A stretch of 64,000 nt of DNA from Elsinoe ampelina (lineage: Eukaryota): positions 542,178-606,177 of the forward strand of contig ML992509.1 in NCBI GenBank assembly GCA_010093995.1. The letters are read 5' to 3'. Below, in pieces: positions 17,701 through 63,919 of this stretch. The notes under the pieces are model-generated. The model was not told the origin of the DNA, did no database searches, and worked only from the letters and a program-made list of their open reading frames with translations. The position numbers and the translations under genes were made by a program. Positions within the stretch are counted from its first letter, which is position 1, and each line of letters begins with the position of its first letter.

Positions 17701-17760
17701 GATAGGTAAGACCGCGATCCATGCTATCCTGTAGTCCTCATACCTTAGAACAGGCGCCAT
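14752..17760 (-). CDS. Pfs/PNP_UDP_1 (nucleoside phosphorylase-like) domain protein with a long low-complexity C-terminus
   Basis: N-terminal ~320 aa: IAWIAVLPIE, GHNVVIA, LLVGVAAG.P, DIRLGDVLV, QYDHGK, GLEMEAAG, VIRGVCDYAD..K.K.WQPYAA; the remaining ~680 aa are R/S/D/P-rich. Confidence 0.85.
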   Translation of the reverse strand: MAPVLRYEDYRIAWIAVLPIETEAAIRMFDRRHDGHFETLPGDSTSSLFIGGEICGHNVVIATWPIGQSYGIGSAAELATDVRRRFRNIWFALLVGVAAGIPNLSDDPLQRRDIRLGDVLVCVPDQLSPGIVQYDHGKYTSSDGGIKFTPTGRQAQTDAVIRKAFGYIKYTSEFPFEDGNECAQYLKVVRPPDRSSKFDCPSEEHDILLATRSADSSEAVVIPRPKRPDSCRTYVWYGRIGFGDALVKSARKRDQLRDDYGIIGLEMEAAGTMNILPAGVIRGVCDYADGQKDKQWQPYAAAAAAAYAKCILHHTTPHKRQASDRPLKPFRPIRRGVINRAGRTHARTKSGSPLSKVGSDGDSTADDADAEESILSPIKSKVKTAAMMAERSQLDGDLAKVDARRKQTSLANADHDAALSMRTIAPCRDGPPESYASVNGSDERATNGLQHPHPNAVTPQGVHIVDATQNEARKDAPAHSMKDVGSVHYMHPFGARESLPAHEPVPIMLHPDNSPFTAAREPDPDLGGFAAIASPSLRPLGHSHPDRVDSAPSMSGGLTLGNEREKNPSAHERAELDSKHIARGIVQPQSGEGAGQRGQSQHFSSASFSSEDGSQRPGWPRETPSRNVPNERDSAEGKSRSNGKQRVAAAAAIATGVLSLFRTPRNKVRKDPRANKIDRNAHDSYTDSYTESDSLDDSTDHDRGRTHADAAQVSLGGATDSEMTRTKEQSPRTSQAHDGDRHDRRVPREQALAAMKAHSKMNHPQSRRGMVFNNDISSNQLHNEDTQGVRAPAPTTTREKRRHLSEEWRGRRAPSPSTSGKDPRVNDGSRSWSTAAVHRFDEEPQRGRRGPDTPTDTTEYELGHSARSWSTEATARGGEKTVRFANVGPRRLPSASSPRQGVYIMRRQQRPRSSSWSSVESNQSRRADATGVQPSLSRGSNVVHFRDPDKKQIEARPRAGRREPVALAMPARGPDLRRRSSAYHGGQTSIRGSGGERKPYRI

Positions 17761-18333
17761 CACCTTCCCGAATCACATTGGCCTGTCCTCAACATGTCGG
17801 CATATACATCACGACCCTTGCAGATTCACAATGAGCATGAAGGGGAAATGTCACCAACCTTTGCCTCGTTCCTGCTGACCCCACTGCGGCTGAGCCGCCC
17901 TCCAATCATGACAGTGTTTGTTAGCCGAGTCAAGAAACCAGGTATGCGAGCAATGGGTGCAGCATCGACAGAATTTTTGACTAGCCGGCGATGCAGTGCT
18001 GAGAGCAGCAGCTGAAGAATGAGGAATGGTCATGAGATATCCTCAGCGAAGAAACCATGACGAAGTCCGTTTGAAAACCAAGGCGGACCCACCACATGCC
18101 CGAAGCATCCTATAATGCCACTGCACGGCACGACACCTCTGGAACAACGAGACTCACACCGCTTCATGCATGGACGATCACATACATTGTGGATGAGCCT
18201 CTTCATTGAGACCGACTAACGTGACAGGACAAGTAGGTCTCCGTGCAAAGGCCGCGCATGTAAGTTGAACATCGCGTGGATTAGATTGCCGAACAAAGCT
18301 TGAACTTCCTTTCCACTCAGTCACAATCCAGCA

Positions 18334-47306: not shown

Positions 47307-49796
47307 TCACTGGAGTCTTTCGGGACTAAAATGACCCATCTCCTTCGCCGCCACTTCGACGGCTTCCTCGACAGCCCCATCGTTTCCTTTGATCCTGCCA
47401 AGTATCGCCTTCACTAGTTCGACTAGCAGTCCTACATTCTCCTCCTTCTGCGCCGCCTCATCCATGTCTTCAAGCAGTACGCCATCCCTCTCCAACGCCT
47501 GGACACGCCTCTCTCGCAAAGCCTCAAGGACCTTCTCGACCGCGTCTGCTTTGCCTTCTCTACGTCTCATTTGTATCCTTCCTTTTCTGCCTCGCACTGT
47601 CGCCATCTCCGATTGGTATATATTTCCCAGACCAGTAACAATTAGCCCCGCCACCTCTGCATCCGGTGCAGTGTCAAAGTGCTTGAGAATAGCTTGCATA
47701 GCCACGACCAGCGCCGGGAAGTCCTTCTCATTGGAAAAGACTGTTACAATTCGCGCATAGATCTCGGCGCTGAAGCTTTCTACTGCTTTTGTGGCTAAAC
47801 GCTCCAGCAAATTTGCACGCCAGTCCAGCATAACTTTGAAAAGTGTTCGAGGTGGTGGTAAGGTATCCCTCTCTAACCGCTTCAGCGGATTGGTGACTTC
47901 CTGCTGTGCATGCCACAGCGCATTGAACGACTCCATGTCAGGGAAAGTGGTCTTGGTGTGATGTAGAAAGTCGTTCCAGATCGCCGCCGGACCATTATTG
48001 TACAGTTGCATATATAGCAAATGATTCATGAAGAAGGAGCTCATCTGTAGTTCTCCAGGCTTGAGCATGCGGTGGAGGTGGCGAAGATGCGACCACTGCG
48101 AATTCAGCAGATAGTGAAGACCCAGAACGTTGAAGGTCTCGATAGTGGCCTGAGGGACAGGGCGAGATAAGTCGAGAGGCACTTGTTGCGGAACGAGTGC
48201 ATCCTCGGCAGGTACTTGTCCAAAGTCTTGCAGCATGTGGAGGTCGCGGCCAGTACGACTTGCAACGTAGGCGATGCGGCGATAGATCATTGCCCACCCA
48301 ATGGCTTGGCCCCGACGTTCATACTCTGTATCTTTTGATCTCATGAGACCACCAATGATGCCGTTTACATGTGTTGCATCTGGGGTGAGGCCACGCTGGT
48401 ACATCAGTTCTACAACCTTCATAGCGCCAGTCAAGTCTGACATGCCAATGAGTTTCTTGATCCAGGAGCCGAAGAAGAACTTATTCTGCCATCGAGTGGG
48501 GAGATCGGCTAGAGCTCGAAGAGAGACATCGTTGATCTCCTGGCTGGTAATGCTTTGACCATGGAGAGCGTCCAGCCGGCGCATGACGCCCTCTTTCATT
48601 TTCTTCTCTTCCTCGACTGTGATCTCCTTCTTCTCCACAGCTTTGGTGCCTTGCAGCATCATGTCGCGGAAAACGGCGAGAGCGAGGTCTTTCTTGTTGT
48701 CTGTGAGGAATCGGGCAACCACCAAATCGTAATCTCTCATTTCCATGCTCGAACCAAGACGATCCCGAAGCAACAGATACAGTGTGTAAGCCATGTGGTC
48801 GTTTCCAGTCTCTATGCTGGCGTGAATCAGGGGATGCAGAGCCCTCGCATTGGCCTGCGGAATTTCCTGGAGATACTGCCGCGCAACGCGAAAGCCTTTC
48901 CGAATATCTCCTACTGCGGCATACAGCTTGATGCCATGCTCCAAATTGCTACGGCTCTTGCCATCTGTGACTTCGTACTCCCTCTTCCATTGCAGGATAG
49001 CTTCTTCTGATTGACCTTGCATCACCATTGCTTCGTACTTGGCCTCGGCTTCTTCTGGAAGGAGAACAACGCCAGCGTCACCCATACCTTTTGCCAGCTC
49101 CAGTAATCGTTCCTCGCGGTGAATGTTGGCCGGTCCAAGCTCGGCTGCGGAGCGCCATAGCACGTGCCATGCTTCAGCTGGTATCCTTGCATTCAACCCT
49201 GGGACTACACGTTTTGCCGCCTGAAAAGACTTCCAGAGATCCACTCGTGTCTTCTCTGACTGTGAATCGTCAGCAGCTCGTCGGAGCTGATTTTGAAGCT
49301 GCTTCAAGACTGGCTCAACAACCTGCTGACTCGGCGATCGAATCTGCAAGCTTCGCTCCTGCTGTTGTCGTCTCGCTCTTTCATTTGCAAGTGCTTTGGC
49401 AACCTCCTTGCGCTTGTCCTCGGGGAAGGCAGCGATCACAGTCTCGTGATACTCCTTGCTATCTATACTGGCGTCGTATTGTCTAATCCGTGCTGTCATC
49501 GCGGCGAGCTGCTTTCGGACCTCAGTCGCCTCCACCTCTTCCGGGTTTGCTGACACCCGCTTGATCTCCCCAGATTCGACATCTTTCTCGAACCACCTGA
49601 TGTCTTCGTCATCGTCCCGGACAGCTGTCGACGCCGGCGAGGCTGGTGGCTTTCTAGTCTTTTCGACCTCGGGTTTTCTCTGGACCTTGGGCAGAACTCT
49701 TCGAAAGAGTTGACTGGTGATTGAGTTGTGTCTACAAGCTTGCTGAAACACCAGAGGGGAGAGGAGAAGTCGACGCTGAAAGCAAAATGGTTGCAT
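47307..49796 (-). CDS. Mitochondrial pentatricopeptide-repeat-like protein (829 aa)
   Basis: Basic presequence (RRLLL..CRHNS); helical repeats with PPR-like ends (ALAVFRDM, MYQRGLTPDATHVNGIIGGL, TIETFNVL, PDMESFNAL). Confidence 0.8.
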   Translation of the reverse strand: MQPFCFQRRLLLSPLVFQQACRHNSITSQLFRRVLPKVQRKPEVEKTRKPPASPASTAVRDDDEDIRWFEKDVESGEIKRVSANPEEVEATEVRKQLAAMTARIRQYDASIDSKEYHETVIAAFPEDKRKEVAKALANERARRQQQERSLQIRSPSQQVVEPVLKQLQNQLRRAADDSQSEKTRVDLWKSFQAAKRVVPGLNARIPAEAWHVLWRSAAELGPANIHREERLLELAKGMGDAGVVLLPEEAEAKYEAMVMQGQSEEAILQWKREYEVTDGKSRSNLEHGIKLYAAVGDIRKGFRVARQYLQEIPQANARALHPLIHASIETGNDHMAYTLYLLLRDRLGSSMEMRDYDLVVARFLTDNKKDLALAVFRDMMLQGTKAVEKKEITVEEEKKMKEGVMRRLDALHGQSITSQEINDVSLRALADLPTRWQNKFFFGSWIKKLIGMSDLTGAMKVVELMYQRGLTPDATHVNGIIGGLMRSKDTEYERRGQAIGWAMIYRRIAYVASRTGRDLHMLQDFGQVPAEDALVPQQVPLDLSRPVPQATIETFNVLGLHYLLNSQWSHLRHLHRMLKPGELQMSSFFMNHLLYMQLYNNGPAAIWNDFLHHTKTTFPDMESFNALWHAQQEVTNPLKRLERDTLPPPRTLFKVMLDWRANLLERLATKAVESFSAEIYARIVTVFSNEKDFPALVVAMQAILKHFDTAPDAEVAGLIVTGLGNIYQSEMATVRGRKGRIQMRRREGKADAVEKVLEALRERRVQALERDGVLLEDMDEAAQKEENVGLLVELVKAILGRIKGNDGAVEEAVEVAAKEMGHFSPERLQ

Positions 49797-49988
49797 AAGC
49801 GCAATCTATGTACAGTGCATTGAGAGATTGAGGAGACAGAGAAATGGACCGTCATGGTGAACATTTTGATTTTGATACACCTCGGGTAAACCTGCCATTT
49901 CGGGAATGCTACTTCCGCGGAGTACAACTACAAACCTCCAACCTATCTTTCACATGTTTGTCTGTATTGTACGTTGACGGTCAACAAC

Positions 49989-52100
49989 ATGGATTTCGAG
50001 ACGTGCTACGTCTTCAGTCCAGATCGCGAAGAGACCGAATCCAGTCCGCCAGTGAAGCGTCGGCGCATTGGCGAACACAGAGGACTACAGTCGTCTTGGC
50101 CTCGGAGGCGAGCTTTGTATGAGAGGTTGTGGTCAGAACATCAAGCAAAGCTGCAGGTGTGTCGAGCACTACACTCAAAAGTACCATGCTGACAAAGGTA
50201 GAATGCTCTTGACGAGCTGAACGAGCAAGTCGTAACAGACGTATCGAAATTTATCGTTGACACGACCTTTGATACTGCAGACTCCAAGCTTGACTCGGCA
50301 ATCCTGGTAACCGGACCCAGCCTGACGTCTCAAGGCATTATTACACGCCAAGTTCATGCACATATTAAGGATCGTGCGCGATCGTGCTTTGTGTCTTTCA
50401 ACTCAAGCGAAGCAGGAAATCTGAAAGCTGTGCTCAAACGGATCAATGCGGTGACTTCTTCGGTTGAGGTACCTGATGACGACGAAGCGGATGAACAGGT
50501 CTCTGGCTCTCGGAAAGGGCTGAAGTTGCTCAACTACGATCTGCGTATCTCTCAACAAGCTGTCGAGGATCAGAATCTTGCGAAAGTTGTAATTGCCTTT
50601 CAAGACTGTGAAGCATTTGATGGAGGTGTGTTATCCGATGTGATTGAGCTCCTCAGGTAGGTATCCTTGTTCTCGTACATCGATATCTCACTCATTACTC
50701 GCAGTTGTTGGAAGGATCGCGTCCCATTTGTACTCATGTTCGGAGTGGCCACGTCAATTGAAGCTCTTCAAAGTAAGCTCTCAAGGAAAGCCATCAGGTG
50801 TCTCAGGGGGCGAAGGTTCGATGCCACCAATGCAGAGGCTACGCTGGAAAAGGTCTTCTCCCATGTGTATTCGTCCGAGAGTAATCTCTGGTTCGGTTCT
50901 GGAATGTCGAGTCTGGTCCTGGCTCGACAACGTGACTATCTGGCCAACCCTCAAAGCATCATTGATTCAATGCAGTACGGATACATGTCACATTGCTACG
51001 CCAATGCTGTGAGTCTGTTTCTTGACGATCAATTGGTCACTACCGATGTCCCCAAGGACCATTTCGAGGCGGCTCGTAATCTGCCTTCCTTCATGCAACT
51101 CGCAGAAAACTTGCTCGAACAAGGCAAGGACCAATCTGGAGAAGTGCGCAAGCTTCTTGAAACCGACACATACCTGCATCAACGCCTCCAACAAGACATC
51201 AAGCTTGGCCAACGAGCTGTGCGTGATATCATTAGAATCGCTCGACTCTACCAACAGCTAGCCTCTGTGTTAGAAGGCGTCGAGCGTTTGCCCGAATCAG
51301 AGATCATAGTTCAAGCACTTTCGGGTTCTTTGCTTGGTTCAGCAAGAATGAAAACCTTCTTCTTGGTGCTGAAGCGAGCTACGTCCAAGGTGCTGCAAGA
51401 CCTGCTAGACAATGCCAGCGACGACCAGGACGAAACGACTCAGGACCTTTTCGAGAACCACCGACAGAGGCTCGTTGATCTTCTGAAGGACCATACCGAG
51501 GCGGACGGACCTTTGCGCAGCGAGGTCGACATACAGAACTCAACCTTACGTACGACTGTCATTTCAAAGAAGATCTCGCTTAGTAAAGCAAAGACAACGC
51601 TCACAAAAGCCGATGCAGCGTATTCGGAGATTCTGAATGAATTTGTTGAGCGGCTACAGAACCATTTTTCTGAGAAGCTCATCGATCCGAGAACACTTCC
51701 ATTCAATGAGATCTTCCTCTTCGATCTCAAGTCACCCTACCGGCAGACCTTCACACCCCGGCCTCGTCATGCCATTGAACGCGCTTTATCGTCACCGCAT
51801 GATTATCTCAATTGCGAATGCTGCGTCCCAAGTGCCGGAGAGGAAGATGGATCGACACTGGCGTCGACACAACACGCGACTGCGATCCTCTACCAGTTGT
51901 ATTTGGAAAGCGGTCTCATGGTGAACGCGGCCGATCTGAGTTCTGCCTTTGCAGCGATTCTGGGCGAGAAGGTCGAGGATGAGGAGGTGTTGAACGCTCT
52001 CTTTCAGAGATCGCTAGCAGAGCTATCTCATCTTGGGTTGGTCAAGGGTACCAAGAAGAAGGCCGATCACCTGATAAAGACTGCTTGGAAAGGCTTGTGA
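49989..52100 (+). CDS. ORC3: Origin recognition complex subunit 3; introns 50157-50201 and ~50657-50704
   Basis: LLNYDL..VVIAFQDCEAFD..LSDVI, PFVLMFGVATS, YMSHCYAN, LPSF, PRPRHAIERALSSPHDYL, ILYQLYLESG, F.R.LAEL..LG.VK..K.DH; ascomycete Orc3 motifs. Confidence 0.92.
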
Positions 52101-52137: not shown

Positions 52138-53049
52138 TCATCCGGTTGCTTCGCTCGTCAGAGCCGTTACTGTGCTCTCTGTACCGTTGCTCTTCTTCCG
52201 CTTCCTCTTAGTCGTTGCCTCTTCCGAGACCGAAGCTTCGCTCTTTTGAGCCTTTTCCTTCTTTGCCTCTTGTCTCGCTGCTCTGATTTGGTTCTCTATC
52301 CTGTCCGGCATAGCGGCTCTCGAGCTGTGCTCCGAGCGGTCTTGGGGCTTCTTCGACTTCATAGCGCTCAGCGGGTTCACGCCCTTGGGCCCTCTCTTCT
52401 TCTTTTGTGGAGCCTCGATTTTGGGCTCATCAATTTCGGGATCTTCTCTGCCCTCCTCACTTCCTTCTCTCTTCCGCTTCTCCCCTGTACCTGAAGACTT
52501 GCCCCGCTTGACTCCACTCCTGACCTTCTCTCTCTCCTGATCGTCCTTGACCTCCTCGCTTCTCGCCGCCATTGGCTCCATGACCATCACCGACCTCTGC
52601 ACATACACCAGTGGTACTCCTGCAACCCCCCGCAATCTCCGCCGCGTTGCTGCGTCCTGGCTTGCGACAATGTACCTGTGCTTGTTCGTCCCGCTGTCTT
52701 TGGGATCGACAACACTCATGATGCACTCCTCTGCACCCAAGGGCTCCTCTAATTCCTGATGACCACATTTTCTCCTCTCACATCCTTTGGCCGTCTCGAT
52801 CCACGAATTCTTCACCGCGCGATCTTCGGTCTTTGCCAGGTAGAGTTGTCGTATACAACACTGCGTGATCATAGGCTTGACTTGACCATGCAACGTCCGT
52901 GAAAGTAAATGTGGCAAATCCATCTTGAACTTTGTCGTGTCCTGGATTATCTCCGCATCCAGCAAAACCTGATATGGTTCTCTGAAGTTGAATGCCAGAG
53001 CATATTGATGCATCAGCTTGCGGTACTGTTTGGAGCGTTTACCCCTCAT
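52138..53049 (-). CDS. UTP23: SSU processome PIN-domain protein Utp23
   Basis: MRGKRSKQYRKLM..FREPYQVLLD, KPMITQCCIR, ERRKCGH, NKHRYIVASQD, GVPLVY, GPKGVNPLS. Confidence 0.95.
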   Translation of the reverse strand: MRGKRSKQYRKLMHQYALAFNFREPYQVLLDAEIIQDTTKFKMDLPHLLSRTLHGQVKPMITQCCIRQLYLAKTEDRAVKNSWIETAKGCERRKCGHQELEEPLGAEECIMSVVDPKDSGTNKHRYIVASQDAATRRRLRGVAGVPLVYVQRSVMVMEPMAARSEEVKDDQEREKVRSGVKRGKSSGTGEKRKREGSEEGREDPEIDEPKIEAPQKKKRGPKGVNPLSAMKSKKPQDRSEHSSRAAMPDRIENQIRAARQEAKKEKAQKSEASVSEEATTKRKRKKSNGTESTVTALTSEATG

Positions 53050-53375
53050 CTTGTGTTGGTGGCGCAAGGCAGCGCTGACAGAGGGCGACGAGCTGAAAAA
53101 GTCTGGTGCAAGATGAGGTGAGGCTCTTCACATGTCGATGCCAAAAATTATTGCGGCTGAAGTCACAAAATCCGGGGAAGCGTGCCTTTCGGGGCGCACC
53201 CTTGGCATGGGCCAAGCCTCGTTCTGGACCAAGAGCTTGATCCGGCCGACATATGGGAGAAGTTGTATCCGATTCCGATCAGCTCACGCCTTCGACACTG
53301 GATATACAAATTGCTGACTCGAAGCGCCGAGAGTAGAGCCATGCTTGGATCTTGGAGACCGACACAATAGCGACC

Positions 53376-56300
53376 ATGGCGAAGGATGAGGACGACAAGG
53401 CCGAGAGTAAGATCTCTCCTGCGGAGGAGAGCACGGGATCACAGGTTCTCAAGCCTTCGGAAGCGGTGACACAAGCAGAGGAGGAGGTTGACGAGTTTGG
53501 ACTCAAGATCAAACATGTTACCAAACGACTATATGAATTACCGACGACCATTGAAGGAGAGGGAACGAAAGACGCCAAGGACGACAGCGATGATGAGAAC
53601 GGTGATGGATTTAAAACACCCCCCAATGGATTGGACAAGAAGACCGAGGAGCAGACGAAAGTTCCACAGCTCGCGACTACGCAAGAGAAGAAATTAGAGG
53701 ACGGCGAAGTCACGAAACCAGAGGACGACCAGGAATCTCTGAAACTCGAAGTGCCCGAACAAAGCCACTCGAGTCCAAAAGTCACTGTGGACGAGATCAA
53801 GTCACCTCAGACCCCGGAAAAGACTTCAGCGAGCACAGATGCGTCGAGACAGCACAGCACGGCTACGACCTCAAGTCCAGTGGAGACCCGCGGAGTATCA
53901 GAATGGTCGCATATGCAGCTCGCGCCAAAGGCTGAGGAAGAAGTCAAGGAGGAAGACGAAGGTGAATGGCAGTCTATGCCGGCTTTCGCGACGCACACGA
54001 TATACGATGATTGGGGGAAAGTGCTTGCACGGGAGGAGAAGGAGCTTGAGGAAGAGGAAGACAAGGGCTACCAGAATCTTGGAGGTGCAAGCAGAGGGTA
54101 CACCAAGGTTCAGCTGGATGAGGATGCAATGTCCGCGACGAGCATGGACGACGATACAGCCTACCTCTTCAAGCAATCAAAGACGACGACATTGCTCGAG
54201 GAGGACGAGGAAGGCAGGGACATGCTCGCTCAAATGGAAGCGACAAAGGATCTCCTTACCGAGGGTCAGCGAATCGCGTACGTTGGTGTAGTAAAGATCG
54301 CGACCATGGAGATGTACCGAGAGTTTGAGAAGATCGAAAGGACACGGAGCACGAAAAGGATGACAGAAGCAACTCTGGAATCACTCAAGAAGTTCAGTCA
54401 GAAGATCATGGTTCGATTATATGGACACATGGAGATCGACTCTGCCGAGCAGGTCATGATTGAGCAGCTGGCCGAGCATGGTGTGCAGGCAGACGACCTC
54501 ACGCCGACGCTCATGCAGAATGCCCGGGTACGAAATCCGATGAAGGAGGCAGAAGCCAAGGATAGAAAGCAGTCGACCAGCGAGGAGGTACCGACACCCA
54601 GCAGCGAGAGCCTTGATGTCAAGAGTCCGACGCCTTCTATGCCAAATACTCCTTCGACGCCTGGCAACGTTCCAGCTCCGTATGATGAAGAAATAGCGCC
54701 AGACGATATGGAGATCCAAAGCCCGTCAGCCATTGCCGACCAAAAGAAGATTGACATTGATCTTAGATGGACGGTGCTATGCGATTTGTTTCTGGTCCTG
54801 GTGGCAGACAGTTCGTACGACGCCAGATCGAGAACATTACTTGAATACGTCGGAAAGGCGCTGCAAGTAGACTGGTTGGACATTTGTCGTTTCGAGAAGC
54901 GCATCACAGACGCTCTTGAAATGCAGGAAGCAGCCGACAAGGAGAACTGGAATGAGGAAGAGCACATGCAGCAGCGAGAAAAGTCGTCGCGGAATCGAAA
55001 GCTGATGATGATGGGTCTGGCGACTGTCGGAGGCGGTCTTGTTATTGGTCTCAGTGCTGGTTTACTTGCGCCTGTCATCGGCGCCGGATTCGCCGCCGGA
55101 TTTACCACAATCGGTATAGCGGGCACCAGCTCGTTCTTTGGAGGCGTAGGCGCCGCGGCACTGATCACATCGACGGGTGTCATTACTGGCAGCACCATTG
55201 GTATTCGAGCGAGTAGTCGACGTATGGGTGCAGTGAAGACATTCGAATATCGACCTTTGCACAACAACAAGCGAGTCAATCTCATCGTGACGATCGCAGG
55301 ATGGATGACAGGCAAAGTCGACGACGTGCGATTGCCCTTCTCAACGGTCGATCCCATCATGGGGGACATCTACTCTGTTCTCTGGGAACCGGAGATGCTT
55401 CAATCCATGGGACAAACCATCAATATTCTCGCCACCGAAGCCCTGACCCAGGGACTTCAACAAATCCTCGGCTCCACCATCCTCGTCGCCTTGATGGCTG
55501 CCCTGCAGCTTCCTATCGTCCTTACAAAACTTGCCTACCTCATCGATAATCCCTGGAACGTCTCCCTCGCCCGCGCCGATCAAGCCGGCCTCATTCTCGC
55601 CGACTCACTCATGGACCGCAACCTCGGCTCCCGCCCGATCACCCTCTGCGGCTTCTCCATCGGCGCTCGCGTCATCTACGCTTGCCTCAAAGAACTCGCC
55701 AAACGCGGCCAATATGGTCTCATCCAGAATGTTTATCTTTATGGCTCTCCCATGGTCGCCAACAAAGACGACTACATTCGCGCCCGCAGCGTCGTCTCCG
55801 GCCGCTTCCTTAACGGCTACGCCACCAACGACTGGATCCTGGGCTACCTCTTCCGCGCCACCTCGGGCGGCATCATGCGGGTCGCCGGCCTCGCCCCCGT
55901 CGAAATCCAAGGCATCGAAAACGTCGACGTAACCCAGCACGTCCCAGGCCACATGTCCTACCGTTCAGCCATGCCGAAACTCCTCCAAGAAGCCGGCTGG
56001 GCAGTCGAGTCCCTCGAGTTCAGCGAAATCGAAGACCCCGACCCCGAAAACCACGAGAAGCGCCAACGCGAGCTCATCAACGAAATCGAAGAAGCGCGCA
56101 AGAAACTCGAAGAAAAGCCCAGCAAGAAAGGCCTCAAAGCCCTCTTCAGCCGCAACAAGAAACTCGCCGAGAAGAAAGAATGGGAGACGTACGACGAGCG
56201 GACCAAAACCGGCCCGGCCGACGGGACCGCCGCCGACGCTTCCCATCCCGGTGCCTCCCCCAACGCGCCGGTCATGTTCGACGTCGACGCCATCCTCAAA

Positions 56301-56963
56301 GAAGTCGCCGAGCTGTCTGCCCAGGGCGTCGAGATCAAGGAGATCCAATCTACTCTCCCGCCCTTGAAAGTCAACGTGGAGCAGCCCGCCCGCGCTCGCA
56401 CGAGCGACAGCCACAGCCGCAGCCACAGTCGCGCGAGCAGCGGCTCGCAAAGCCCGCGACCGTTGCGGACTAGCTCGAGTTTCACCGCCACTGCCGCCAC
56501 CAACGCCGGCGCAGGGGTAGGCGTAGGGGGCAGGTTGAGTCATAAGAGTAGTCGCAGCTCACTCGGGGGCGACCGGAACGGGGCGACGAACGGGGGTATG
56601 TTGAGCCCGGCGAGTCCGAAGGTGAAGAGCGCCGGGGGGTGGTGGAGGAGGGGGAGCGGGAGTGGGGCCGGGAGCAGGGAGAAGTTACCCGTGGCTGTTG
56701 GGACGGAGGGGACGATGACGTGTGAGAGTGCTGGGAGTAGGAAGGGGAGTCCTGCGCCGGAGAGGCCCGGGTTGTATACGGCGCAGTCGGCGCCTGCAGG
56801 GACGAGTGGGAAGGGGGCGGCGGTCGGGGTGGGGGTAGGTGGCGGTGCGCTGGCGGTGGGAGGGGGTGCGGCTGCGGCGTATGCGGTGGATCATAATGCG
56901 TGGGCGGACGAGGATGAGTTTGGGAACAAGCGGGGTGGGGAGATGGAGATGACGTTCGAGTGA
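53376..56963 (+). CDS. MIL1: DUF726/TMCO4-family membrane-associated lipase-like protein (Mil1-like)
   Basis: WQSMP motif, IDIDLRWTVLCDLFL, YDARSR, Gly-rich hydrophobic GLSAGLLAP, IDNPW, RPITLCGFSIGAR (GxSxG), DWILGYLFR, GHMSY. Confidence 0.88.
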   Translation: MAKDEDDKAESKISPAEESTGSQVLKPSEAVTQAEEEVDEFGLKIKHVTKRLYELPTTIEGEGTKDAKDDSDDENGDGFKTPPNGLDKKTEEQTKVPQLATTQEKKLEDGEVTKPEDDQESLKLEVPEQSHSSPKVTVDEIKSPQTPEKTSASTDASRQHSTATTSSPVETRGVSEWSHMQLAPKAEEEVKEEDEGEWQSMPAFATHTIYDDWGKVLAREEKELEEEEDKGYQNLGGASRGYTKVQLDEDAMSATSMDDDTAYLFKQSKTTTLLEEDEEGRDMLAQMEATKDLLTEGQRIAYVGVVKIATMEMYREFEKIERTRSTKRMTEATLESLKKFSQKIMVRLYGHMEIDSAEQVMIEQLAEHGVQADDLTPTLMQNARVRNPMKEAEAKDRKQSTSEEVPTPSSESLDVKSPTPSMPNTPSTPGNVPAPYDEEIAPDDMEIQSPSAIADQKKIDIDLRWTVLCDLFLVLVADSSYDARSRTLLEYVGKALQVDWLDICRFEKRITDALEMQEAADKENWNEEEHMQQREKSSRNRKLMMMGLATVGGGLVIGLSAGLLAPVIGAGFAAGFTTIGIAGTSSFFGGVGAAALITSTGVITGSTIGIRASSRRMGAVKTFEYRPLHNNKRVNLIVTIAGWMTGKVDDVRLPFSTVDPIMGDIYSVLWEPEMLQSMGQTINILATEALTQGLQQILGSTILVALMAALQLPIVLTKLAYLIDNPWNVSLARADQAGLILADSLMDRNLGSRPITLCGFSIGARVIYACLKELAKRGQYGLIQNVYLYGSPMVANKDDYIRARSVVSGRFLNGYATNDWILGYLFRATSGGIMRVAGLAPVEIQGIENVDVTQHVPGHMSYRSAMPKLLQEAGWAVESLEFSEIEDPDPENHEKRQRELINEIEEARKKLEEKPSKKGLKALFSRNKKLAEKKEWETYDERTKTGPADGTAADASHPGASPNAPVMFDVDAILKEVAELSAQGVEIKEIQSTLPPLKVNVEQPARARTSDSHSRSHSRASSGSQSPRPLRTSSSFTATAATNAGAGVGVGGRLSHKSSRSSLGGDRNGATNGGMLSPASPKVKSAGGWWRRGSGSGAGSREKLPVAVGTEGTMTCESAGSRKGSPAPERPGLYTAQSAPAGTSGKGAAVGVGVGGGALAVGGGAAAAYAVDHNAWADEDEFGNKRGGEMEMTFE

Positions 56964-57148: not shown

Positions 57149-59677
57149 CTACTTGGCTCTCTTCCTCTTGTCCTTCTCCCGCGCGTACTGGTTCCCTTCT
57201 CTTCCTTCTTCGCTGTTGATCTCCGCCACCAGACGGCGGAACTTCTTCTCGTAGGCCGCGTCCTTTTCTTTCTTCTCCCGGAGCTGTTCGCGGGCGATGA
57301 AGTGCGAGTCCTTGCGGAGTTCGCGGATGGCTCCCTTGCGTTCGCGCTTGTACTCTTTGCGCAGCTTGGCGGCGTCGGAGCGCTCTTTGTCGGGGTCGTA
57401 GTGCTTGCCCGGCATGAAGTTCTCTTCGAACTTGGGTATCGAGGTGCGGATTGGGAGGGGTCGGTGGTGGTGTAGTTCGAGAGGACGGCGTGCGAGGCGA
57501 GCTTGTGAGAGGAAAATGTCGATGTGCTTCGCTGCCTTGGCGTCGATGGCGCGTAGAGCTTTATGTGCTGCTGGGGTGAAGATCTCTGCAAAGGCAGGGA
57601 GATGGCGGTATTGTTCTGCCATTGCCAGCAGGTTGGACACGTGTGATTGTCGGACATCGGATGAAGATGGTGCGTCGAGTTGGAGGGCCTTGATGGTAAA
57701 GCGAAGAGCTTCTGGGATGTATCGTTTCGATAACCGCTGGTAGTGGAGACTCAGAGCGACTAGGAAGGCTCCTGTCTGCAATTGTTCCTCGCTAGAAGGC
57801 GTCACAAAGGCAAGCCATTTAGCAATAAGCGTGATCGCTGGTGTGACGACCTGATGGAAGTGGTCCGACGTGGGATAGATTGATCCAATAGCTGTGAGTA
57901 TGACCAAGTCTCCTTTCTTGATGTCACCGGTCTTGTGTATGACACCGAGGTGGGCTCTAAATGCCTCAGCTATCTCCAATGGGAACGTCCGGGACAAAGA
58001 ATGCAAGTGTCGTATAATATTCTCAACAATTGCCAGTGGCTGACTATTGCTGCCCATGTATGAGATGTGATCTACCAGAGCTCGGGAGAAGTCGGATAGT
58101 TTAGCTTTGTTGTCTGCAGATAGAGATGGGTGATACAGAGCACGGATTCTCTGTATGACGGTCGGAACATCATCAAAGTTTACAGTCTTGAATATGTTCA
58201 GTAGCTCCTCATGATTCCGTGGGCACGAATATGTGTAGGCGACAGACGAATTTGTGGCGTTGCCAGAGTCAGTGGTAGTCTTCAACTCATCATCGAGGAT
58301 GCCCTTGACAAACTCATCCTCCTCATCAGCTTCGTCAGGAGCGTGGACGCCATTGGTCTGGAGGTCCTCGTCTTCGCTGTCGTCCATTTCGCTTCCTGAT
58401 TCCAAGTCTGATCCGCTGGCGACCAGATCCTCATCGAGCTCGAATTCGTCTTCGTCATCCAAGACCGGCATCTTCTCCTTCCCTGCAGGTGCGGTGAAAC
58501 CGAATTCAGCAGCATCGTCCCTCTCCTCATCCTCGTGCTGAAGATCTTCCCCTGCGACGGCCTTTGCGGCCTTCTCGCGCTCGTCTCCAGATTCCTCAGA
58601 CTCCTCACCACGCATGCGGCGCTGTCTTGATTGTTCAAGCTCCTTCAATCGCTCTGCTTCGTCCTTTGCTCTCTCTTCATCCGTCTTTGTCCTGTCTGCT
58701 GGGGCCGCGCGCTTGTCCAGGGCGAGCTGGCGTAACCGCGAGTCGTATTCCTTGTCCGCCTGCTCTCGTGGCACGCCTTGCAGCATAGCCAGTCGATCTG
58801 CGTTCATCTGAGGCTCTGCAGGCCTGATAGTGTCATCCTGCTTTGGTGGATCGATCTTGCGGTTCGTGAATAGAAGTGGCATCAGATCGGCCATACCTGA
58901 GTCCAGCTTTGCTCGAAGATCATCGTCGTCCTCTTTTGCCTTTTGTCGCTCGTACTTGTAGAGCTTGGACTTTGCCATGACCTCCTTCATTACCTCTTGT
59001 TTCGACTTCTTCCGCGCCGGTTGGTTATCGTCGTCCATGTCCGATCCACCTTCCTGATCACCATCCAAGTCGGTCTCGGACGGTCGTCTTCGTTTCAAGA
59101 GACCCTTCTCCGCGTCAGATTCGTCTTCTGAACCCGTGAGCGCCTCATCGAAGTCGTCCACGCCGCCAAATCCATTCTCCAGGTCCAGAGCTTTACCCAA
59201 ATGTGTCAATCCTGTTTGCTCCTGGTCGTCCCCTTCGAGATCGAAAACGTTGTCGCGCTTCCTCTTTCCCTCTCCTCGCATGTACCGCTGTAACGCCTTC
59301 TCTTCGGGAGTCATGGTGGCATCATCTTCGCCGATCCTCCTGTCCACGATGCCTCCGGACTTGTTCCGTCTCTGCAATTCCGGCAGTAGATTCTGTCTTC
59401 GAGTCTTCTCGCCCATGCTTTTCGTGACTCCAGGGCGGCCGACGGTCGCCGGACCATTCCGGTCTGCTGCATGTGCGAATTTGGCATTTCGAGCGGGAGC
59501 CTTGATCTCGAAGGGGTTGAAGCTGTCTCGAATTTGCTGCAATGCGGCCTGTTTCTGTAGACGCTGGTCTACGCTCTGGTCGCGGCCGGACTTCTTCTGC
59601 TTTTTTGATTTCTGAGGACCGACCAGACCCTGCTCTCGTAGAGACGCCTTGAGGCGCTTCAGCTGCGACGGAGGCAT
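57149..59677 (-). CDS. NOP14: Nucleolar protein Nop14
   Basis: MPPSQLKRLK, FNPFE, GGIVDRRIGE, LTHLG, KSKQEVMKEVMAKSK, YPTSDHFHQVVTPA, KRERKGAIRELRKD. Confidence 0.96.
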   Translation of the reverse strand: MPPSQLKRLKASLREQGLVGPQKSKKQKKSGRDQSVDQRLQKQAALQQIRDSFNPFEIKAPARNAKFAHAADRNGPATVGRPGVTKSMGEKTRRQNLLPELQRRNKSGGIVDRRIGEDDATMTPEEKALQRYMRGEGKRKRDNVFDLEGDDQEQTGLTHLGKALDLENGFGGVDDFDEALTGSEDESDAEKGLLKRRRPSETDLDGDQEGGSDMDDDNQPARKKSKQEVMKEVMAKSKLYKYERQKAKEDDDDLRAKLDSGMADLMPLLFTNRKIDPPKQDDTIRPAEPQMNADRLAMLQGVPREQADKEYDSRLRQLALDKRAAPADRTKTDEERAKDEAERLKELEQSRQRRMRGEESEESGDEREKAAKAVAGEDLQHEDEERDDAAEFGFTAPAGKEKMPVLDDEDEFELDEDLVASGSDLESGSEMDDSEDEDLQTNGVHAPDEADEEDEFVKGILDDELKTTTDSGNATNSSVAYTYSCPRNHEELLNIFKTVNFDDVPTVIQRIRALYHPSLSADNKAKLSDFSRALVDHISYMGSNSQPLAIVENIIRHLHSLSRTFPLEIAEAFRAHLGVIHKTGDIKKGDLVILTAIGSIYPTSDHFHQVVTPAITLIAKWLAFVTPSSEEQLQTGAFLVALSLHYQRLSKRYIPEALRFTIKALQLDAPSSSDVRQSHVSNLLAMAEQYRHLPAFAEIFTPAAHKALRAIDAKAAKHIDIFLSQARLARRPLELHHHRPLPIRTSIPKFEENFMPGKHYDPDKERSDAAKLRKEYKRERKGAIRELRKDSHFIAREQLREKKEKDAAYEKKFRRLVAEINSEEGREGNQYAREKDKRKRAK

Positions 59678-60153
59678 GGTACGGCGGAGGATGATATGTC
59701 TGTATCTGCGGGTATGAGGTGGACTTGACTCCCGCAAAATAATTCTGCCGGCTACGTTCACCGCCTTTGACCACTGGATATTACTGTACCTCGGAGGTAC
59801 GGAACATACGTTGGAACTGAACTGGACGTTGAGAGTTGAGACTCTCTCCCCCGCCAGGATCAGAAGTGCAGGCAGCGCGCGTCAAACCAAGCCACAATTC
59901 AATCATTCTTGGACACGGCCAAACGATCAGACGCCTGTTCTCCAGATTCTCTCCGCCCTTGATTTCTCCGTCTTCCCCCGACTCAGCAGTTGGTATATGC
60001 TTAGTTTAATTCTTCCCGTTCAACGCGGTATCTCTATTATATATCCGATCGAGAGGGAGGTGGATGGCTTTTTTGGGTCCAGTCGTATCCCCGCGGCATC
60101 GGGAAATGCTCTGTCTACACGACGCTCATTCTTGAAGAGTCAAACACTACCAG

Positions 60154-62365
60154 ATGTCGTCGTCGAACGAGACACCATACGAGATTGGCAGTCTCAGACG
60201 TTCAGAAGATGGCCAACTATCATTCATTGGCAGCTCCTCTGGCGTGTATTTTATCAATACTGTCCGTCAGGCCTTCGCCAGTGCTATAGCATCTCAGAAT
60301 GCGAGCACAAATCATAGCAGAGAAGGTAGCCACCTCGACGACGAGCTGAACAGCTATCTTGCGGGCCACACTCCGGGGGATAATGGTCACATGGACCGTC
60401 GCTCAGCGCCTGGCAACGTAACACACGAGCGATCTGACTTTCTGGTGGAATTGACGAAAGCACTACCAGAGAAGGACGTGGTTAAAGACTTGGTCACGAA
60501 CTTCTTCCGATCATGGCATCCACTGTTGCCGTTCCTTTACGGACCTGGTTTCATGACACAGCTTGACTCTGTCTACGAGACGCAGAATCATACTTGGAAC
60601 GAGCGATGTTTCTTGATCACCCTGCATTGCGTCATGCGCATCGCTGCGTTAGACCATCAGGATACAATCGAGTTGCCACCTTCAATGTGCGATCGGCCTT
60701 CAAAATTGATGGCTTTACTCGGACCTATTTCGCTTGACAATCGTCTGGTGTCCACACAGACACTGCTAGCAGCTCAATTGTACTTTACAGCTGCTTTGTC
60801 ATTGGATGCGGCATCGACCGTATCTGGCCTGGCGGTCCGCTCAATCGTCAAAAGTGGACTTCATAGATGTCCATATCGCTATCCGAACATCGCTGAAGAC
60901 GACCGTGTCATGAGAAAGCGAATCTTCTGGAGTGCATACATTCTCGATCGCTTTCTCACGCAGTCATTAGGCCACCCACTTGGACTTCAAGATGGAGACA
61001 TAGATGTTTGCCTTCCTTCGCCTGGCGAGCTACACACCCGGCATCTGAACGGTCAAAGCGCTCGGCCCTGGTTCGAAACGGATCGTTCTCGGAAGGAAGT
61101 GGTGCTTTCCAACACTATCAAGTGTGCAAAGTATACCGGTCAAATTCTGGAAATGTTCCACAAGTCAGTACATGCTCGTGCCCTAACCCGTCAGGCCCTG
61201 CTAGCCCTGGAAGCTGAGGTTGACGGGTGGTACAACCAACTACCCCGCAGGCTGGAAGGTACAACCAGCTCAGTGCATTCAAAGGCCTTTTTCGACATCT
61301 CGTACAACCACCTCAAGCTTCTTATGAATAGGCCATTCCTCTCATTAGATCCTTTCTCGCCGGTGTTCCTCGCGTCGATGCAAAAGTGTCTCTCAGCAGC
61401 GAGAAACATCATTGACACGTTCATCGAGCAGCTCGACGCTGGACATGACTTGAAATGGCCAGGCTACATGTCATGTGCGTGGATGGCCGGACTGCTGGTC
61501 GCGTTTGCTGCTCAATGCAATCAGTATCCTCTCGAGCATGCCAAGGAGTAAGCTCAACCCACTCTTCTCTTGTATGCTTTCTGGCAGACAGCTAACCTCC
61601 GCAGCGACATTGCCCAAAGCCTCGAGGTTCTTACACACATGGGGAAGCGGTGGAAAGCCGCTGCCCACTGTGCGAATGCTCTGCGCATATTGAAAGACCG
61701 CATGCATGTCCTCGACACTGAGCTGCCAAAGCAGAGCCCGATGGTGACGGCGGATACGGACAGTCCGGACTTGACCGAGCTGTTCAGTCACAGCAGTAGC
61801 AAAAGACCAATACCCTCACGAGAACGGGATAATCCCGGATCTTCCAAGAGGCGTCGGGCTGAGAGCGATGGTAAGTGGATCCCAACTTCAGTACGAATGG
61901 AAAGCATTCACTTCCAAAACAATCACCCGCAACACACGGCGGGCACTTGATGTCTCATTTCGATCAATCTAACACCTAGTAGCAGATGCAAGCTCGAATG
62001 GCAGTCCCATCGTCCGTCAATCAGACGTCCAACTTGCGCCCGAATCAGCGCACGATCGCAATATCGACATGGCGCCTACGCCTCGCACCTGGAACGGTCC
62101 TATACGTCCTCCACAATCTGACACTTCAGGCTACGCTCAGCCGCCGCCCGGGTCCGCTCAAGCCATGTTTGCCCAGAGCAGGCAGCAAGCTCTTGACGCA
62201 GCTCGCACCTCCAATGCGGCCGATGGAATGGGCTACTACTATCAGCCATACCCTATCTCCACCGACATGTTTCAGAGCACCGACCTGGAGTCCCTCCTCG
62301 CCTCGATGGACCCCAATCAATTCTTCCCTGGTACCATGAACAATTTTGAGCCCCCTGAAACCTGA
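60154..62365 (+). CDS. Fungal-specific transcription factor domain (Fungal_trans/middle homology domain) protein lacking a Zn2Cys6 domain; introns 61548-61604 and 61871-~61985
   Basis: SFIGSSSG, LP..LV..FF..HPLLPFL, GLHR, RKRIFWSAYILDRFL..LGHPLGLQD.DIDV.LP; splicing joins the 61570 and 62069 ORFs in frame. Confidence 0.9.
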
Positions 62366-62522
62366 GATCGCTTTGAGCGCCCGCGCAGAACAACAGCATC
62401 CCTGCTCGGGCTTTCTCAGGTCTACAGCAGTTACCAGGCCCTGCCGTCGGCAATGTAACAAATTCGATTCTTGACCGCGGCATGTCGAGAGAACGACTAT
62501 ACACCGACACCAGCCGTCGAGC

Positions 62523-63355
62523 TCACCAGAAGACATCCTGATCTAGCTCGCGCTCGCCAGAACGTCCTCCGCGATGAGTCTGCACTCGCTTGGCTGGGCG
62601 TTCCTCGGTCAATCGTCGTGTAAGAGTGCTAGGTCCGGAACTAGGAGTACTGCCACTATAGCCGCCACTAGGCATCTCCGGCTCCGGCATCCTCTCGATC
62701 GAGTCCCTTCTTCGTTTGTCAACGTCATCGACAGATCCGAAGGCAGCACGTGGCAAGATACCACCACTATGCGACCTCGAAGGACGACGAATGCCTTGCC
62801 GAACGACACTTCCGGACTTGGCATGCCACCAGCGGCGAATGTCCTCTGGCGTGTCCAGAGGATAGTCACTCCAGTATCTCGGGTCCGGACGCTCGAAAGT
62901 GATACCCCCAGCTTGGCCCTGATTCATGACAGAGGAACCATACACGACAGAGGTGACTTGGGCATCGTCCAGTAGCGCAAGAGCGCGGATAAGCAATTCT
63001 TCGGTTCTTATGAGTCTGCTTTCCAGCATTTCAGCGTATCCCTTCAGCGGACCCCTAGCACACAGTCAGCGTTTCTGTCCCTGTAGCCAACAGACTATAG
63101 CGTCTTACCTCTTCTGCTGCTGCGGCCACTCGCACTTTCTCCTCGTCGCTTGACATTGCTGGCACTGCGGCTTGACGCCATTACACTGCGATGTTAAGCA
63201 ACTGTATATATCTTAATGTGAATACTTGATGCTACCTTTTGCTTCCTCGAACGACACGCCAAACACGCCAAAGGTATCCTTGTCGCGGGTTTTGCATTAG
63301 TCGACGACTCCGCCGGGCTCTGCGACGTCGGCGATGCTTGGCTCTCGGCCTGCAT
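62523..63355 (-). CDS. Small Zn(II)2Cys6 DNA-binding protein (242 aa) without a middle homology domain; exons 63355-63236, 63185-63109, 63054-62523
   Basis: Spliced MQAESQ...RIPLACLACRSRKQK/CNGVKPQCQQCQATRRKCEWPQQQKR/GPLKGYAEMLESRL; GTAGCA and GTAAGA donors, CAG/TAG acceptors; 729 bp in total. The ORF track shows only the last exon. Confidence 0.92.
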
Positions 63356-63919
63356 TGCTGGAGATGTATCGACTGTCTCTCTATCCTGCGTCCGGGGCCT
63401 CTAATCTGCACTCAGTGTATTGTGCTTGAATGGCCGGATGGATGCGCCAGAACCTTGAGGCGACTTCTGTCGAGGTTCGGGCACGGGCGGAGTGCTGGAG
63501 AAATTGAGGTTGAACCCCGCTTTTCCCCAGACGGCGCTAGTGGAGCTGGTGGTGGCAAGTCGTGCCAGATGTAGAGAAATGAGCCACAGACTTCTTGCCA
63601 CGCCGTTGGTCAATCAAGCTCGCCGGCTGGTTGGCGCATGATTTTCGGCCCGCTGTGGCTCAGGCTTCGTGGGGATCAGATCCTCCTTCCGACAGCCAGC
63701 CATGCCGAGACACGGTTAATTATTTAGCCCCAGCGTTGGTCCGAAAATGCTTGGATCGGCTCTGCTGCAGACATCGTTATTCGATTCTAGAGTTCTGCGG
63801 AGCAAAGCTGCATTTACGTGACCGCATCCAGGGACCGAGGCGGCCGATCACGCCTCAAAGGTAAAGACAACCGGCAATGAAAACGAAGGCCAGAAGCATG
63901 TTTCTTCACCCCCTCTCGG

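Follow-up and report, generated by a model that had tools for sequence, protein, structure and literature searches.

The 64-kb Elsinoe ampelina window (the whole stretch of DNA analysed) carries near its right-hand end two convergent genes whose protein products have complementary domains. One, on the plus strand at 60154-62365, encodes a 680-amino-acid protein that has a Fungal_trans regulatory domain but lacks a zinc cluster; the other, on the minus strand at 63355-62523, encodes a 242-amino-acid protein with a Zn2Cys6 cluster and no regulatory domain. They are referred to below as the large and the small gene, and the window reaches only about 650 bp to the right of them. A first-pass annotation made from the sequence had proposed that the two are complementary halves working in trans. 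On the evidence that follows, we consider it probable that the pair represents two subunits of one Gal4-class zinc-cluster regulator, encoded as two polypeptides since early filamentous ascomycetes. Zinc-cluster proteins form the largest class of fungal transcription regulators, and the control exerted through their middle homology region is poorly understood. The features of the pair and of the gene to its left are the following (runs are those of the transcript contigs described below).

57152-59677, minus strand: NOP14 (Pfam Nop14, E-value 1.6e-236), ATG at 59677-59675
59678-60153: intergenic stretch of 476 bp between NOP14 and the large gene; promoter and 5' untranslated region (UTR)
60154-62365, plus strand: large gene, a regulatory-domain gene without zinc cluster; ATG at 60154, stop codon ending at 62365, two introns, 680 amino acids
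60154-61547, plus strand: large gene exon 1, 464 codons plus 2 nt; N-terminal EIGSLR...FIGSSSG motif and most of Fungal_trans
60490-60555, plus strand: F..WHPL.PFL.GP motif, codons 113-134 of the large protein, at the start of the regulatory domain; predicted docking pocket
61548-61604, plus strand: large gene intron 1, joint 61547/61605 in 4/4 runs
61605-61870, plus strand: large gene exon 2, end of the helical regulatory domain and a KRRR stretch
61871-61982, plus strand: large gene intron 2, joint 61870/61983 in 4/4 runs
61983-62365, plus strand: large gene exon 3, low-complexity tail, acidic and hydrophobic C-terminal motif, stop codon
62366-62522: gap of 157 bp between the convergent stop codons
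63355-62523, minus strand: small gene, a small zinc-cluster gene; ATG at 63355, stop codon 62525-62523, two introns, 242 amino acids
63236-63355, minus strand: small gene exon 1, 40 codons; first two cysteines (CX2C) and a basic stretch
63186-63235, minus strand: small gene intron 1, 50 nt, skipped in 4/4 runs; interrupts the six-cysteine cluster
63109-63185, minus strand: small gene exon 2, cysteines 3 to 6 of the Zn2Cys6 cluster, its second half at 63164-63132
63055-63108, minus strand: small gene intron 2, 54 nt, skipped in 3/4 runs
62523-63054, minus strand: small gene exon 3, GPLKGY linker, putative dimer helix, small helical domain with YW..YPL.T...IRRWW, disordered tail, LDQDVFW, stop codon
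62526-62546, minus strand: C-terminal LDQDVFW, last seven codons of the small gene; short linear motif, the predicted docking element for the large protein's regulatory domain

The large gene had been described as starting just 5' of the FIGSSSG motif and as carrying a full Fungal_trans domain. This is confirmed here by the position of the motif at residues 24-30 and by the Pfam scan, in which Fungal_trans was the sole family in the protein (PF04082, residues 116-337, E-value 5e-22, 78.7 bits against a cut-off of 23). The frame opens at 60136, there being an in-frame stop 18 nt 5' of the ATG, and the 476 bp back to the NOP14 start, measured as 59678-60153, were found to be as devoid of cysteine-cluster coding potential as had been claimed, no zinc-cluster half-pattern CX2CX6C occurring in the plus-strand frames of 59300-60260. 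The exon 1 product matches the E. ampelina protein P0001 at 100% identity, and use of the acceptor at 61983 gives 680 amino acids, the same length as the public model. The KRRR stretch in exon 2 looks, from its sequence, like a nuclear localisation signal.

For the small gene, the coordinates of the convergent stops (62365 and 62523, 157 bp apart) were confirmed, and the spliced model together with the Pfam searches agrees with the first-pass description of a complete Zn2Cys6 cluster, linker, putative dimer helix and YW..YPL.T...IRRWW motif in a protein lacking a regulatory domain. Intron 1 interrupts the cluster 3' of its second cysteine and basic stretch, and splicing, which the RNA contigs confirm, yields the spacing CX2CX6CX6CX2CX6C. 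Zn_clus (PF00172) was scored at 29.5 bits against a cut-off of 21 (E-value 8.2e-7) in the orthologue P0123, on which, rather than on the window's own spliced protein, that scan was made; it was the only family in P0123, where no AflR-type domain was found, and a Pfam scan of exon 3 gave no family at all. The public models of this gene in E. ampelina (168 amino acids), E. batatas and E. fawcettii have 166-168 amino acids, start inside exon 3 and are devoid of the zinc-cluster exons, and among the Elsinoaceae public models that of Sphaceloma murrayae (231 amino acids) alone includes the cluster (Zn_clus E-value 8.2e-7). The 242-amino-acid model therefore corrects the public 168-amino-acid model of E. 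ampelina.

Both gene models, including the two zinc-cluster exons of the small gene, were confirmed by Logan contigs from four runs of three studies (X1, X2, X3 and X6) placed on 59300-63800. None of the runs listed was recorded as RNA, and the contigs, which give no true transcript starts, strand or expression level, are considered RNA-derived because all four predicted introns are skipped, with GT..AG or CT..AC ends. Introns 61548-61604, 61871-61982 and 63186-63235 were each skipped in the four runs, and intron 63055-63108 was spliced in X2, X3 and X6 and retained in X1. When this last intron is retained, its first full codon is a stop, and the read-through product comprises little more than the zinc cluster. 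The contigs bearing the large gene start at 59823, 59844, 59870 and 60008, that is, 146-331 nt 5' of its ATG, those of NOP14 end at 59814, 59759, 59675 and 59667, and no splice joint from the large gene to an upstream exon was present in the contigs of the four runs. In every run a single contig spans both convergent genes, and therefore their 3' ends overlap or abut, which is not proof of a single transcript; a natural antisense overlap of the two 3' ends in the 157-bp gap is possible. The X6 contig has an extra T after 60068, in the 5' UTR of the large gene, which probably reflects a difference between strains; the remaining three runs agree with the window at this point.

We characterized the protein family of each gene. 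A search with the exon 1 protein of the large gene retrieved 234 proteins at an E-value of 1e-3 or lower among 8000 scored candidates, and 120 of the 234 are listed. All 120 listed relatives, which span Dothideomycetes, Eurotiomycetes, Sordariomycetes and Leotiomycetes, have PF04082 and lack PF00172, and the Zn2Cys6 pattern was found in none of them. GSSSG is present in 110 of the 120, with a median position at residue 24 and, in 108 of these 110, a position no later than residue 60. Alignment of 32 diverse members showed the N-terminal EIGSLR...GSSSGV.F and the WHP..P.L.GP motifs to be invariant or nearly so (L113, W121, H122, P123, P126, L128, G130 and P131 invariant in the 32 sequences, F118 nearly), and the alignment consensus retains the acidic and hydrophobic C-terminal motif. 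Since no listed relative has a cluster and the RNA contigs contain no upstream exon, the absence of the zinc cluster is not a gene-model error but an old and fixed feature of this family, in keeping with the initial opinion that a missed upstream zinc exon was unlikely.

The AlphaFold2 model of the large protein has a helical core at residues 92-510, where most 10-residue blocks have a mean predicted local distance difference test (pLDDT) score above 80, and disordered ends, the pLDDT being below 50 from residue 511 onward. Its closest solved folds are chains of Cep3 (6gyp_B, E-value 6.8e-6, template-modelling scores 0.41/0.52, followed by 2veq and 2quq), so that it shows the all-helical, Cep3-like fold characteristic of Fungal_trans proteins; Cep3 is the sole solved fold match for the regulatory domain. 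A sequence search of the Protein Data Bank disclosed no solved relative for either family.

A word-based search with exon 3 of the small gene gave only four relatives, all from Elsinoaceae. The Elsinoaceae-only origin that this would imply was overturned when a profile built from the four was run against 1.84 billion representatives and detected 83 proteins at an E-value of 1e-3 or lower, 81 of them 113-351 amino acids long and two longer (777 and 2337 amino acids). The set aligned and scanned comprised 78 members (P0122, P0124, P0131, P0173 and P0188 were left out). Fungal_trans was found in none of the 78, a Zn_clus match in 23 and an intact cluster pattern in 21, while the GP.K.Y linker is present in 74 and a C-terminal W, mostly as F.QQFLW, in 70; the terminal W is invariant across 82 aligned small-family sequences. 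Many models break or stray right after CRSRKQK, where the intron lies, and thus the same intron defeats gene prediction in many genomes. The named members belong to Aspergillus, Penicillium, Talaromyces, Rasamsonia, Thermoascus, Exophiala, Cordyceps, Sarocladium, Lasiodiplodia, Saccharata and Bisporella, nearly all of them labelled hypothetical, and the ESM Atlas contained only unnamed or loosely named ascomycete clusters. AlphaFold2 modelled exon 3 with helices at residues 2-27, 30-42, 58-63 and 69-87 (pLDDT about 90) and a low-confidence tail from residue 90. The candidate dimer helix (exon-3 residues 2-27, pLDDT 81-94) has L10, E11, L14, L21 and L25 nearly invariant and R13 and E18 invariant.

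The two long matches were discarded as members. P0131 (2337 amino acids, 13 matched stretches, E-value 1.9e-21) is a Schlafen protein with about 20 AlbA_2 repeats and looks like a repeat-driven false match. In P0173 (777 amino acids) the front of a small-family protein runs into the large-family domain, which begins there at residue 131. We weighed an ancestral fusion as its origin and rejected it, as residues 1-130 of the large family and the small-family tail are both missing; P0173 is probably a chimeric gene model. As it resembles a gene-caller join of two tandem neighbours, it provides a further case of adjacency.

The linkage of the two families extends well beyond E. ampelina. In E. fawcettii and S. 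murrayae the two proteins bear consecutive accessions, and the genes are found together on each of two Logan contigs, of 23 kb and 30 kb. In Rasamsonia byssochlamydoides (locus tags 4304 and 4306) and Thermoascus crustaceus (7760 and 7762) the genes lie on one contig with accessions two apart; these two species and S. murrayae are the three common to both named lists, and the genes are close in all three. Scanning metagenome contigs with the large family gave 16 loci, L001 to L016, whose six-frame open reading frames (ORFs) were searched with profiles of both families. L001-L003 are Penicillium-like (best matches 76-91%) and L004 is Thermoascus-like (84%), and L007-L016 have only 35-47% identity to named members. 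A small-family ORF was detected in ten of the 16 (L002, L004, L005, L006, L009, L010, L011, L012, L013 and L015), with E-values from 5.7e-10 to 4e-46 and at profile positions outside the zinc cluster. Upstream zinc-cluster exons were found in the pair-bearing loci, and the L009-L013 lineage has its intron elsewhere. Once duplicates are merged (L004 = L005 = L006, L010 = L011, L012 = L013), 12 distinct loci remain and the pair is present in six of them; L001, L007, L008 and L014 are short contigs (1.9-3.9 kb) barely longer than the large gene, and among the eight distinct loci with enough flank the pair is found in six. Linkage of the orthologues, which the first-pass annotation had suggested as a check, thus holds in E. 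fawcettii, S. murrayae, Rasamsonia, Thermoascus and these six of eight informative loci, and fails at L003 and L016, to which we return below.

The arrangement of the pair varies with the lineage. It is convergent in Elsinoe and head-to-head in the L009-L013 lineage, with about 270 bp between the starts; in L002 and L004 one gene lies between the two, and in L015 they are on the same strand, 4.5 kb apart. Since the orientation differs among lineages, the linkage has survived rearrangements, and its retention through many of them speaks for selection acting on the pair. As the source of the Elsinoe arrangement, gene fission through a simple inversion was weighed and rejected, because the split long predates Elsinoe.

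We then modelled a complex of residues 1-520 of the large protein with the exon 3 product of the small gene (176 amino acids); the supplied alignments were not used. Three runs scored 0.64, 0.63 and 0.65, against 0.16, 0.00 and 0.00 for the controls, so that complex modelling, which had been put forward as a check of the two-halves proposal, favours it (0.64 against a best control of 0.16). In the calibration, the mark was reached by 51 of 78 solved complexes and by two of 108 mismatched pairs. The confident contacts link exon-3 residues 170 and 174-176, at the L..VFW end, with residues 115, 118-119, 126, 130-131, 133-134 and 314 of the large protein; that is, the invariant terminal W and its neighbours are predicted to meet residues that are invariant or nearly so in the partner family. 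The model thus supports binding of the VFW tail into the WHP..PF..GP pocket. As neither family has a solved sequence relative, the prediction is unlikely to be a recall of a known complex.

The idea of complementary halves is therefore backed by three independent lines: a large family without zinc cluster, linkage in distant fungi, and the complex prediction. A sensing subunit, and activation as opposed to masking, are what we infer beyond them. As a mechanism, we propose that the 242-amino-acid protein would bind DNA through its Zn2Cys6 cluster, presumably as a dimer formed through the helix after the cluster, and that its disordered tail, ending in a tryptophan motif (VFW here, FLW in most relatives), would dock in the WHP..PF..GP pocket. 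The 680-amino-acid protein, which consists of a middle-homology (Fungal_trans) regulatory domain and an acidic C-terminal tail and has no DNA-binding domain, would in this manner be brought to the promoter as the regulatory subunit. There it may control activity upon a small-molecule signal, as the same domain does within the one chain of Leu3-type factors, and it would probably add its own activation tail, the pair acting as one factor in two chains. In its most specific form, an ancient and naturally split Gal4-class factor of filamentous ascomycetes in which a zinc-cluster protein of about 250 amino acids uses a W-ending tail, fitting the pocket at the start of the regulatory domain, to recruit that domain from the product of a linked gene, the proposal is a tentative one, to which we give somewhat less than even chances.

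If true, the same pocket-and-tail contact may be the long-sought means by which one-chain zinc-cluster factors mask their activation domains, and having the DNA-binding and regulatory parts on separate proteins opens that contact to direct study by binding assays, point mutants in the four-residue motif and co-crystals. It would also offer a function for proteins now labelled hypothetical, namely hundreds of Fungal_trans-only proteins and the small zinc-cluster family of 141-351 amino acids, many of whose genes are mis-annotated, only 21-23 of 78 models having an intact cluster.

A third gene recurs at the linked loci. An all-against-all comparison revealed a gene 77-86% identical among L002, L004, L010, L013 and L016, assigned to Iso_dh by Pfam, and the Aspergillus flavus copy scored 498.6 bits against a cut-off of 470.4 for the tartrate dehydrogenase equivalog TIGR02089. 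In A. flavus the large-family protein and the protein annotated as tartrate dehydrogenase have consecutive accessions, models in A. parasiticus and A. novoparasiticus (1063 and 1082 amino acids) fuse the two, and in two Penicillium species their locus tags are 2 and 4 apart. In L004 the tartrate dehydrogenase gene lies between the two regulator genes, and both there and in L002 it stands head-to-head with the small gene. Further neighbours were a 2-hydroxyacid dehydrogenase in L009, L010, L012 and L014, a major facilitator superfamily (MFS) transporter in L015, and a flavin adenine dinucleotide (FAD) monooxygenase in L004, which is fused to the small gene in a Thermoascus model; no FAD monooxygenase gene was found in the 64-kb Elsinoe window. 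Of shared flanking genes, another check named in the first-pass annotation, tartrate dehydrogenase is thus an example in other fungi and not in the Elsinoe window. Because the pair adjoins tartrate dehydrogenase in many other fungi, the ancestral target was probably the adjacent tartrate dehydrogenase cluster, devoted to hydroxy-acid catabolism of the tartrate or D-malate type. The pair is thereby a candidate regulator of tartrate use in fungi and, if the reading is true, would regulate tartrate catabolism, which is relevant to a fungus on tartrate-rich grapevine tissue. In the open-access full-text literature (subscription journals were not covered), no description of such a pair or of a fungal tartrate regulator was found.

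Two of the metagenome loci deserve mention in this regard. L003 carries at 16582-17958 (minus strand) a one-chain regulator, with Zn_clus and Fungal_trans in one ORF, 4.4 kb downstream of the large-family gene. In L016, the large-family gene (9917-10947, plus strand), which adjoins tartrate dehydrogenase, matches only profile positions 5-37, 115-307 and 679-699, and is perhaps truncated or decaying, the lineage being one without the small gene.

Several observations weigh against the two-subunit reading. The calibration of the complex prediction is mainly microbial, and seven of 44 blindly drawn neighbouring pairs passed an older run; the pLDDT of the partner was only 46-48, its fold being uncertain and mostly disordered, the contacts agreeing between runs were as low as 8%, and the interface is small, involving four residues of the small protein. 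The pocket motif is presumably common to Fungal_trans domains generally, and the prediction may lack partner specificity. The wider small family is visible only by profile, with the Elsinoe members its most divergent, and L003 and L016, in spite of long flanks, showed no small gene even at an E-value of 10 or lower. In E. batatas, whose orthologues are 98-100% identical to the window's proteins, KVT40_009194 and KVT40_008960 are on one 3.69-Mb contig with locus tags and accessions 234 apart, which may reflect either a numbering that does not follow position or a rearrangement. Finally, tartrate dehydrogenase is absent from the 64-kb Elsinoe window (tblastn, E-value of 1e-3 or lower), and the left neighbours there are housekeeping genes.

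With these points in mind, the closest rival is an activator with its anti-activator in the manner of Gal4 and Gal80, the large protein masking an acidic, W-ending activation motif at the C-terminus of the small one until an inducer releases it. The predicted interface does fall on the last residues of the small protein, and known repressors grip the activator's C-terminus; moreover, a DNA-binding domain, a putative dimer helix and a conserved motif at the C-terminus are combined in the small protein, and head-to-head or adjacent placement would suit such modules. However, the large protein keeps a conserved acidic and hydrophobic C-terminal motif and a putative nuclear signal, both needless for pure masking. 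This explanation, close to the preferred one in that the binding step is common to both, is in our opinion unlikely. Weaker, and rather improbable, is the view that the genes encode two independent regulators linked by inheritance in an old metabolic cluster, the zinc-less protein using another DNA-binding partner or acting off DNA. Catabolic gene clusters of fungi frequently contain more than one regulator, tartrate dehydrogenase accompanies both genes so that a cluster effect could explain their linkage, and the two loci retaining the large-family gene alone and the blind pairs passing the older complex test would fit. Yet the Elsinoe pair is adjacent with no tartrate dehydrogenase in the 64-kb window, and thus the linkage does not depend on that enzyme gene; the genes are head-to-head, only some 270 bp apart, in the L009-L013 lineage, their domain contents are exactly complementary, and the predicted interface is built of residues invariant in each family. 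As to an annotation or assembly artefact, whether a missed zinc-cluster exon of the large gene or a decaying fragment of a full-length regulator, regulatory-domain-only models are often errors, as the first-pass annotation remarked, the small gene is mis-annotated in three Elsinoe genomes, and P0173 looks fused. Against this stand the RNA contigs that begin well 5' of the ATG with no upstream splice, the in-frame stop preceding the ATG and the lack of upstream cysteine-cluster potential, the absence of a cluster from every listed relative, and the finding that transcripts of both genes occur, with correct splicing, and that both are conserved across fungal classes; P0173 has the look of a chimeric model of two neighbours. 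An artefact is essentially excluded.

Compared with known systems, the parts of the pair are ordinary Zn_clus and Fungal_trans members, and it is their arrangement that is not canonical. The same modules make up the one-chain Zn2Cys6 regulators of the Gal4, Leu3, Pdr1 and XlnR class, the small protein having the six-cysteine cluster, linker and a candidate dimer helix and the large one starting, by the first-pass account, at the motif that follows the dimer helix in one-chain factors; the large protein's all-helical Fungal_trans model in turn matches Cep3 best. In contrast to these factors, the modules are here on two polypeptides from two genes throughout both families, and a zinc cluster and a regulatory domain in the same polypeptide were found neither in the RNA-derived contigs, nor among the 120 listed relatives, nor in the 78 small-family members. 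We know of no one-chain factor with either the YW..FPL helical domain or the W-ending tail of the small protein.

Three two-protein systems offer partial parallels, and the pair is a member of none of them. AflR is a zinc-cluster protein without Fungal_trans encoded beside AflS, a partner without DNA-binding domain to which it is reported to bind, the genes being often divergent. In both cases a DNA-binding protein adjoins a DNA-blind partner, but the small protein lacks the AflR-type domain (Pfam), its partner has Fungal_trans only, and the pair is not in a secondary-metabolite cluster, its conserved neighbour, where present, being a primary catabolic enzyme. In Gal4/Gal80, QutA/QutR and GaaR/GaaX, the genes for activator and partner frequently lie side by side, and the target of the partner is the activator's C-terminus, which resembles the interface predicted here at the small protein's last residues. 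Gal80, QutR and GaaX belong to other folds, whereas the partner here is the regulator's own missing regulatory domain; neither a Gal80 nor an AROM-derived repressor fold is seen in the large protein, which has Fungal_trans only (Pfam) and is Cep3-like. In the Fusarium trichothecene cluster, the small DNA-binding protein Tri6 and Tri10, a regulator without DNA-binding domain, are reported to be both needed for expression (PMC10149712, PMC10853542), their direct binding being only suggested (PMC10853542). Tri6 is a Cys2His2 protein, whereas the small protein here is a zinc-cluster protein. Tri10 presumably carries a Fungal_trans domain. Regarding the neighbouring enzyme, the ttu operons of Agrobacterium vitis, which serve tartrate utilisation, group a tartrate dehydrogenase with a dedicated regulator. 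The fungal loci likewise have a tartrate dehydrogenase of the same equivalog (TIGR02089) beside a regulator, some adding a 2-hydroxyacid dehydrogenase or an MFS transporter, but the regulator is of a wholly different type, and the grouping in fungi is loose, with frequent rearrangement.

The genes to the left of NOP14 in the window are the following.

53337-56963, plus strand: DUF726 protein (Pfam)
52138-53127, minus strand: Fcf1/UTP23-like protein (Pfam)
50661-52100, plus strand: ORC3-like protein (Pfam)
47307-49805, minus strand: 832-amino-acid ORF without Pfam match

We also searched for a DNA site of the pair. No CGG-N12-CCG or comparable site was found beside the two genes in the Elsinoe window. 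In related loci, CGG-N12-CCG occurred in six of 11 promoter regions, with 64 spacing and orientation classes tried, and judging from sequence it is a candidate binding site and a lead only. The copies noted, in promoters adjoining the pair, are these.

L004:7653-7670 and L004:9558-9575: alike, CGG-yTGAAC-...-AGCCG
L009:1167, L010:9834 and L015:5378: share CGGAA..AC

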